A DNA stretch of 63,209 nucleotides, counting the filler, from Rozella allomycis CSF55 (lineage: Eukaryota): NCBI GenBank assembly GCA_000442015.1. It is 6 parts of 6 records of this genome, joined end to end, with 100 filler letters (N's around TTAATTAATTAA, not from the genome) between each part and the next. Parts side by side here need not be neighbours in the genome. Positions count along the whole stretch, not along the records: positions 5,601 to 28,593 come from KE560852.1; 5 more parts are not named here. The stretch is one strand, 5' to 3'. This document shows, in pieces, positions 17,901 to 18,931 of the stretch. Both the position numbers and the translations under genes were made by a program. The notes beneath the pieces were generated by a model. The model was given only the letters and a program-made list of their open reading frames with translations, was not told where the DNA came from and did no database searches. Within the stretch, counting starts at the first letter, position 1; each line of letters starts with the position of its first letter.

Positions 17901-18931
17901 AATGGGTTATTCTGATCAACAAATTCAATCTATCATTGATAAACAGAATTTAAATTCTTTTGATATAGACTATGAAGTGCCCATCATCAAACCAGGTAAT
18001 GTCTTGTAAAAATACTTTAATTATAGGTGACGCTTCAGCTGCCGCCCCGTTTACTTCAAAGTTGTCGTCTATTCAATCAGTTTGTCACATTCTAAGACAA
18101 GGTAGATGCACTCTCGTTACTACAATTCAAATGTACAAAATTTTAGCTTTAAATTGTTTAATCTCTGCCTACTCTATGACTGTCATGACTCTAGATGGTC
18201 TCAGATCTTCAGACTTTCAACAAACATTCGCAGGTATTATAGAATAGGTTTATTAATCTAGGTAATCAATTTNACATTCGCAGGTATTATAGAATAGATT
18301 TATTAATCTAGGTAATCTATTTCAAAAATTTGTAATTTAGGTATCATTTTGGCTTCTTCTTTTCTTTTTCTATCTCAGTCTAAGCCTCTAGATCAGCTGT
18401 CTATTTATAGACCTCCTTACAAGATATTTTCATTCTACTTTTTATCTTCTCTCTTGATTCAATTCGCTATTCACTTCTCTTGTTTATTTTATACTGTTTC
18501 TCTCGTCAAATCAATCTCTGGTCAATTAGATTACAATCTAGAAAGAAAATTCGAACCAAATCTATTAAACTCTTCAATCTTTCTTTTATCGCTCTCAATG
18601 CAAGTCTCCACCTTTCTTGCAAACTATCAAGTACACTTGTTTACCATTTATAATCAAGGGTCATCCATTTAGAGAATCAATCTCTGAAAACAAAAAATTA
18701 AGAAACTCTCTACTAGTAGCTGGATCAGTGGCATTCATTTGTGCATTGGAAATATTCCCAGATTTCAATAATGTAAATTACTTCTTTTAAATCAATCAGT
18801 GGCTGCAGATTGTTCCTTTTCCTGAATCTTTTAAATCTACTTTTGTTTTTATTCTTTTCTTTGATTTTATCGCCTGCTATCTTGTCGAGTATTTTTCCAA
18901 ACTACTCTTTTACAAAAGTCAAAATGTTTAA
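14998..18931 (+). CDS. SPF1: P5A-type ATPase (ER transmembrane helix dislocase)
   Basis: [14 protein letters not shown] (P5A-specific), [58 protein letters not shown]. One apparent 1-nt frameshift at 17794-17796. N joins at 15505 and 18273. Confidence 0.93.
17469..17558 (+). repeat. 15-bp coding tandem repeat (VDTT[K/N/T] x6) inside SPF1
   Basis: GTTGATACTACTAAA-type units, preceded by [10 protein letters not shown] repeats at about 17390-17468. Confidence 0.85.

Follow-up and report, generated by a model that had tools for sequence, protein, structure and literature searches.

The window, i.e., the whole stretch of 63,209 nt of Rozella allomycis CSF55 DNA analysed here, is made of joined contigs, with six 44N-TTAATTAATTAA-44N linkers and 23 single-N joins. 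Its plus strand carries an SPF1 / P5A-type ATPase gene followed by a formate/nitrite transporter (FNT) gene. SPF1 contains, besides ordinary single micro-introns, two composite interruptions, in each of which two intron-like units abut. The features around the composite considered first are given below (a slash in motifs and peptides marks a junction).

14998-18931, plus strand: SPF1 / P5A-type ATPase gene, 1186 codons, six single introns and two composites (homologues, Pfam domains, clean ORF)
15252-15278, 15647-15672, 15726-15753, 17996-18026, 18632-18659, 18773-18799, plus strand: single introns of the SPF1 gene model
17794, plus strand: spurious extra base that frameshifts SPF1 (HIGV/ALLNASE)
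18027-18283, plus strand: SPF1 exon upstream of the composite (homology, ORF); the true exon is 18027-18223 plus 18274-18283, with an overlap artefact inside
18284-18311, plus strand: unit A, micro-intron GTA...TAG, 28 nt (sequence; size, ends, and site scores compared with single introns)
18312-18340, plus strand: unit B, micro-intron GTA...TAG, 29 nt, abutting unit A with no exon between (sequence; site scores)
18341-18631, plus strand: SPF1 exon downstream of the composite (homology, ORF)

To join the SPF1 reading frame, the six single introns, both composites, one spurious base, and two duplications at contig overlaps were left out; the joined exons comprise 3561 nt and end in their only stop. 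In the database, the exon at 16197-17795 is matched best by a 1189-residue protein with 100% identity, which NCBI names a cation-transporting P-type ATPase domain protein of Rozella allomycis CSF55, and the next matches, among those listed, are P5A (SPF1/PDR2/ATP13A1) ATPases from many eukaryotes (8000 candidates scored, 3180 proteins with E <= 0.001, best 120 of the 3180 listed). Dropping base 17794 restores the SPF1 frame. Since the Logan contigs of three DNA runs placed on 11634-27659 (X1, X4, and X6) all leave this base out at full depth, the frameshift constitutes an assembly error. The public protein model P0001 (15370-20096) starts inside SPF1 and fuses it with the downstream transporter; it crosses the frameshift region out of frame, as it does part of the transporter, and keeps the 27-nt intron 19287-19313. 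A metagenome scan for relatives of the locus, made with the public protein model, gave 58 pattern matches, 0 of which were confirmed by tblastn. The runs listed as covering 15506-18272 include no RNA run, and the single RNA run compared with the region (X12) gave four short pieces of low complexity and no joints, results that do not bear on expression or splicing.

The interruption at 18284-18340 is 57 nt long and is split into 28 + 29 nt at an internal AG/GTA. The junction of its units reads TAG/GTAATC at 18311/18312, so that an acceptor and a donor are directly adjacent. The upstream exon ends in ...TTC GCA G at 18283, where the last G is the first base of a glycine codon, and the downstream exon begins with GT ATC ATT at 18341, completing this codon. 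With the 57 nt removed, the junction peptide was compared with nine SPF1 homologues: eight alignments run ungapped through the junction and the ninth begins at the junction glycine. Removal of one unit alone shifts the frame, retention of both introduces an in-frame TAG, and the public protein model likewise leaves out all 57 nt. The DNA structure of the composite is established, and both units need to be removed. The preliminary description, which had claimed a twin micro-intron of 28 + 29 nt at this place in SPF1, was exact in coordinates and letters, and the homologue alignment and the clean frame require the removal that it had postulated.

The same arrangement recurs at two other sites, one in SPF1 and one in the neighbouring gene.

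16138-16194, plus strand: second SPF1 composite (twin 1), 28 nt (16138-16165) + 29 nt (16166-16194), joining RTG/YETSQG (9/9 homologue alignments ungapped at the junction)
19115-20099, plus strand: formate/nitrite transporter (FNT) gene, three single introns (19287-19313, 19700-19727, 19946-19971) and one composite (homology, 281-codon ORF)
19406-19463, plus strand: composite in the FNT gene, 29 nt (19406-19434) + 29 nt (19435-19463) (PF01226, ORF)

The exon downstream of the FNT composite matches PF01226 from profile position 56, and the alignment of the public model to this family continues across the junction. A second allele of this composite (X1) differs by changes of -1, -1, and +2 nt; its total stays at 58 nt, and its units would be 27 + 31 nt. 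In twin 1, a joint in the X1 and X4 contigs skips 9 nt inside unit A, the letters between being unread; if this is a pure deletion, unit A would measure 19 nt in that allele, below any accepted single intron. The FNT gene, like the segment 14001-16000 described below, is GC-richer, and it scores as non-coding under a codon model for which the rest of the window served as training set.

A scan of all GT..AG/GT..AG pairs in the window returned 102 rows, of which the three composites and one further site, 56078-56128, survived. Candidates such as 7520-7581, 19700-19760, 30265-30319, and 59158-59221 were rejected, as one of the supposed units is coding by homology or reading frame. The site at 56078-56128 (plus strand) is a 51-nt in-frame interruption starting at a TAA stop and a candidate 28 + 23 composite whose second donor is GTT; alternatively, it is one intron of 51 nt or reflects a base error. 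It lies in an orphan gene, with no Pfam family around the site and only a weak C-terminal kinase-like match. Apart from this candidate, the pair scan and the intron census described below bear out the earlier statement that twins occur nowhere else in the window.

The composite at 18284-18340 lies next to a single-N join, and the nature of these joins is therefore of importance.

18224-18273: near-duplicate of 18274-18322 (49 nt) plus a single N, probably an unmerged contig overlap (period 50, 2.0 copies, 95% matches)

Duplicated, slightly divergent ends of 10 to 493 nt flank single-N joins, the one at 18957 included. They are unmerged overlaps, which create false tandem repeats and false exon duplications, and the overlapping ends probably stem from two haplotypes. 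At the joins at 3962, 5018, 9976, 11633, 14550, 15505, 18273, and 47206, Tandem Repeats Finder reports 2.0-copy arrays exactly on the N. Two haplotypes are indicated by the many variants that X1 and X4 carry at about half depth. The sister copy at 18224-18272 differs from 18274-18322 by 2 mismatches in 49 nt and contains unit A together with only the first 11 nt of unit B. As independent contigs of all three runs collapse the duplications at N15505 (41 nt skipped) and N18957 (10 nt left out), and as a 2.0-copy repeat sits on the N here too, the N18273 pair looks like overlapping contig ends, possibly two alleles, and not like two loci. The presence of the twin in both N-joined copies, which had been taken as a second instance, is correct to the extent that a near-copy with the TAG/GTAATC junction at 18261/18262 exists; this copy, an apparent contig overlap with a partial unit B, adds no independent support.

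The contig break falls 11 nt into unit B and its flanks are duplicated, in an assembly with errors such as the extra base at 17794 and the collapsed overlaps at other single-N joins, so that the second unit, or the whole composite, might have been produced by the assembly at the N18273 join. We regard this as extremely improbable. Unit A and unit B are not copies of each other, and frame and homology both need the removal of two units. One X6 contig covers 17499-18673 in a single piece, the bin has depth in X1 and X4 as well, and none of the joints listed for the contigs of the three DNA runs deletes either unit, which argues against an artefact at 18284-18340. The composites at 16138-16194 and 19406-19463 are far from any N. 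An artefactual second unit was the case that the preliminary description had itself named as fatal, and it is contradicted by independent DNA contigs that cover the composite.

For comparison with the introns of the surroundings, a small gene finder was built on the window from codon log-odds and donor and acceptor position weight matrices (PWMs); as it was trained on the same window, the resulting census is partly circular and misses genes with atypical codon usage. Penalties were raised after the first run over-called introns, and the first ORF-junction scans were noisy, showing only a peak at 26-28 nt. No gene was called at 18274-20250, where codon usage is atypical, and homology guided the manual annotation of this region. 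When all intron lengths up to 300 nt were given the same prior weight, the predicted introns peaked sharply at 26-28 nt, and the 57- and 58-nt interruptions were picked as single events; on inspection, no mid-length prediction other than these composites held up. Where further predictions of 37-129 nt lie in conserved genes (a protein kinase, 45.1-46.2 kb; an AAA ATPase, 20.3-22.7 kb), they break down into introns of 24-31 nt with real exons between them, and the remaining ones are gene-merging artefacts or unverified.

In the final census, introns were capped at 36 nt and composites were allowed. The accepted models contain 90 single introns of 24-36 nt with a mode at 26-28 nt (26 nt, n=27; 27 nt, n=20; 28 nt, n=26; 29 nt, n=5; 30 nt, n=3; 31 nt, n=4; 24, 25, 34, 35, and 36 nt, n=1 each), although one of them, 17802-17829, merely bridges an assembly frameshift. 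With six SPF1 and FNT singles added by hand, about 95 single-intron sites stand against three composites in the window. No single intron longer than 36 nt was confirmed in the window, and no exon of 1-27 nt lies between two predicted introns there; the zero-length exon is consequently not the tail of a continuum, and exact abutment differs from what random placement of introns would give.

The unit lengths of 28 and 29 nt fall within the 24-36 nt span of the local singles. All six composite units are nevertheless at least 28 nt long, vs 41 of the 90 singles (p ~0.009, own arithmetic), which means that they are not typical draws from the single-intron lengths. The units are all 28 or 29 nt, with totals of 57, 57, and 58 nt, while a length of 29 nt is found in only 5 of the 90 singles. 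Position 3 of the donor is A in 86/90 singles. GTT donors are present in the introns at 20761-20786 (minus strand, AAA ATPase gene) and 30265-30292 (minus strand, YIF1-like gene), so GTA is not obligatory. At 45880-45907 (minus strand, inside 45864-45948), a CaM-kinase-like gene encoding ...LMMD-Y-VSGGELFD needs the removal of 28 nt that begin with GTA and end with TG, i.e., a non-canonical 3' site or a base error.

A central AG/GTA is present in all three interruptions longer than 36 nt. Among 200,000 intron-like sequences of 57/58 nt simulated with a first-order Markov model, an internal AG/GTA with both parts at least 24 nt long occurs in 0.53%, and its occurrence in 3/3 cases corresponds to ~1.5e-7. 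The composite at 18284-18340 is a real sequence feature, far beyond chance. Compared with the 90 singles, unit A (18284-18311) ranks at the 23rd percentile for the donor PWM and the 19th for the acceptor, and unit B (18312-18340) at the 46th and the 60th, respectively. The inner sites of the FNT composite are weak (unit A acceptor at the 1st percentile, unit B donor at the 6th). The acceptor PWM covers the last 14 nt, including the branch-like A/T-rich stretch; the matrices, trained on this window, are weak and, apart from GTA(A) and (A/T)AG, hold little information. A published remark on R. allomycis S23 introns, ~30 nt long and devoid of strong motifs, is in line with this (PMC6349667). Each unit of the composite looks like an ordinary Rozella micro-intron, and the pattern recurs at three sites.

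If each unit is recognised separately, a composite would be removed in two consecutive splicing reactions, in either order; once one unit is gone, the remaining one would have normal exon sequence on both sides. The same mRNA would result if the outer sites were occasionally used in a single step. As the units have everything that a single Rozella intron has, and exon flanks after either removal, two order-independent reactions are the simplest reading. Judged by its sequence, the composite at 18284-18340 is on balance a head-to-tail pair of U2-type (GT-AG) introns, both complete and of minimum size, with what is effectively a zero-length exon between them, and removal of the composites in two steps appears somewhat favoured.

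Most eukaryotic spliceosomes are able to remove a 57-nt intron in one step. The interruption could accordingly be a single 57-nt intron, spliced from the outer GT to the outer AG with a branch site in its second half, in which the inner AG/GTA is a duplication relic or a cryptic site; we consider this a serious possibility, though not a probable one. Its outer donor and acceptor are both good, and one- and two-step removal give identical mRNA that DNA and protein homology cannot separate. The uniform totals, the minimum of 28 nt in all units, and the weak inner sites of FNT all count against two steps, and the 9-nt skip in unit A of twin 1 would, if a pure deletion, favour one-step removal. 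The alternative FNT allele was counted on both sides: its total remains at 58 nt, which fits one intron, and its units would, at 27 and 31 nt, still be in range, which fits two. What speaks for the use of the inner sites is the force that keeps ~95 other introns at 24-36 nt, since it should have shortened a 57-nt intron unless its halves were already minimal; the window also has singles of 34-36 nt, so that there is no sharp upper limit to size. The central AG/GTA in 3/3 cases points the same way, although a duplication relic could account for it. Under a model in which the first AG after the branch is used, moreover, the branch-like region and the AG of unit A would compete with the outer sites.

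A further reading is that the site is regulated. Retention of either unit (28 or 29 nt) shifts the frame and retention of both brings an in-frame stop, a layout that fits unproductive splicing; use of a single unit could yield a frameshifted transcript targeted by NMD, and the composite would be an expression switch and not a neutral by-product. This is very unlikely, as identical frame effects are expected for any micro-intron whose length is not a multiple of three, and an RNA fold bringing the outer sites together is not significant in any of the three composites (z +1.5, -0.45, and +0.69).

As to its origin, a composite might derive from a single ancestral intron via a tandem duplication of ~28-29 nt across an AG/GT splice junction, i.e., by intron gain of the Rogers type. 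A duplication over the 5' junction would create a new donor-to-AG unit touching the old intron, provided that the exon ends in AG; the mirror case would need a next exon that starts with GT. The upstream exon ends in AG in 3/3 composites vs 17/90 singles, and the downstream exon starts with GT in 2/3 vs 9/90; the flanks of 18284-18340 are ...GCAG/ upstream and /GTATC downstream. Flanks with upstream AG and downstream GT are needed if ~28 nt are to be tandemly duplicated across a splice junction. What similarity is left between the copies is weak (about 15 non-independent tests on short sequences). Comparison of whole units gave p 0.80 for twin 1, p 0.10 (not significant) for the 18284-18340 twin, and p 0.017 for the FNT composite. 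The tail of unit A set against the tail of the upstream exon gave p 0.011 in twin 1; in the 18284-18340 twin, tail against tail gave p 0.025, and the head of unit B against the head of the downstream exon p 0.23.

These data lend modest support to an origin of the composites by tandem duplication, and the composites are probably the footprint of such duplications at splice junctions. A composite, once formed, would persist, as both of its units are already at the minimum spliceable size and small deletions would be harmful; to resolve it, ~28 nt would have to be lost precisely, which is a rare event.

A 23-nt tandem repeat lies in the intergenic region upstream of SPF1 (14886-14963), with an insertion polymorphism of one 23-nt unit at 14933, and SPF1 contains several coding mini-repeats; duplications of such size therefore occur locally. 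Composites make up 3/12 of the intron sites in SPF1 plus FNT vs 0/86 confirmed elsewhere (hypergeometric p ~0.0015, own arithmetic, post hoc). The repeat clusters at 0.5-2.6 kb and 47.5-50.3 kb are free of twins, and the possible fourth composite is 37 kb off. The local duplication-prone domain proposed in the preliminary description consequently fares less well than the duplication itself: the origin by duplication has modest support, whereas the domain, given the post hoc clustering, the repeat-rich parts without composites, and the distant candidate at 56078-56128, is possible but not established.

Other compositional features of the region were recorded as well. The segment 14001-16000, which runs from the 3' end of a carboxyltransferase gene into the 5' part of SPF1, has a GC content of 0.435 and a GC skew of +0.39, vs ~0.34 and ~0 elsewhere. 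Haplotype differences concentrate in introns and repeats; in the case of the 26-nt intron 14450-14475, six half-depth substitutions lie at or within 7 nt of it, four of them inside. Long imperfect repeats in coding sequence (periods 54-81 nt, many Thr/Ser/Pro codons) extend at 48808-50279 over two to three paralogous gene pieces joined by N, which suggests a mucin-like surface protein family.

The origin of new spliceosomal introns and the lower and upper limits of intron size in reduced genomes are illustrated by few natural examples. If the composites are spliced unit by unit, Rozella would provide a minimal, sequence-defined model of zero-length-exon recursive splicing, direct evidence of a spliceosome that is length-limited from above, and a set of recent, countable intron gains by tandem duplication at existing splice junctions. 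A more far-reaching proposal, which we put forward tentatively and hold to be rather doubtful as a whole, is that the reduced spliceosome of Rozella accepts only introns of ~24-36 nt, and that longer interruptions are chains of minimal introns born by ~28-nt duplications; the ~3% of intron sites in the window that are composites would then be snapshots of intron birth and the smallest natural case of zero-length-exon recursive splicing. If removal takes place in one step, the composites are merely duplication relics of modest interest. In practice, gene predictors with an intron-length cap for Rozella will break genes at composites, and at the SPF1 locus the public model is already a faulty fusion of two genes.

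Several known systems resemble the composite in part, as far as the cited portions of their descriptions go. Zero-nucleotide-exon recursive splice sites (ratchet points) are found in long introns of Drosophila (bioRxiv 10.1101/006163, PMC8605326). As in the Rozella composites, AG and GT adjoin inside the intervening sequence there and permit consecutive removal without a leftover exon. Ratchet points, however, subdivide very long introns and regenerate the 5' site after the first step, whereas the Rozella interruption totals only 57 nt, and its units, each a complete minimal intron, could leave in either order if removal is stepwise.

Fungal stwintrons, i.e., spliceosomal twin introns such as the [D1,2] type (PMC5639578, PMC9024468, PMC12403724), are closer in scale, being composite interruptions of ~100 nt or less that are removed by two consecutive U2-type reactions in the accounts cited. 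In the Rozella composite, by contrast, GT and AG are intact in both units, which do no more than abut; as neither interrupts a splice signal of the other, it is not a stwintron. A [D1,2] reading of 18284-18340 was rejected, since the base after 18284-18311 is G and not T.

The Rogers model describes intron gain by tandem duplication of a segment containing AGGT (PMC3265369, PMC4974935). In both settings a short tandem duplication with AG/GT would supply a new donor-acceptor pair and leave the mRNA unchanged. In the cases described in the cited parts of these sources, exonic sequence is duplicated and gives a first intron, while in Rozella the duplication would span an existing junction and give a second intron touching the first; similarity between the copies, too, is mostly eroded in the Rozella composites, unlike in those cases.

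In the literature searched, no account was found of introns that abut or stand in tandem, be it in Rozella or in another organism with micro-introns, and the abutting pair is probably an undescribed variant of known phenomena. Median intron lengths of 29-197 bp are given for fungi, with the species unspecified in the cited portion of that source (PMC8042348). The nearest relatives of each unit are the ordinary micro-introns of Rozella itself, which share its size, its GTA and AG ends, and its A+T-rich make-up; the composites differ from them in that two units follow each other with a zero-length exon between, and in that the units lie at the long end of the size range. The interruption at 18284-18340 is best classed with the ordinary micro-introns of Rozella, the new element being that two of them abut.
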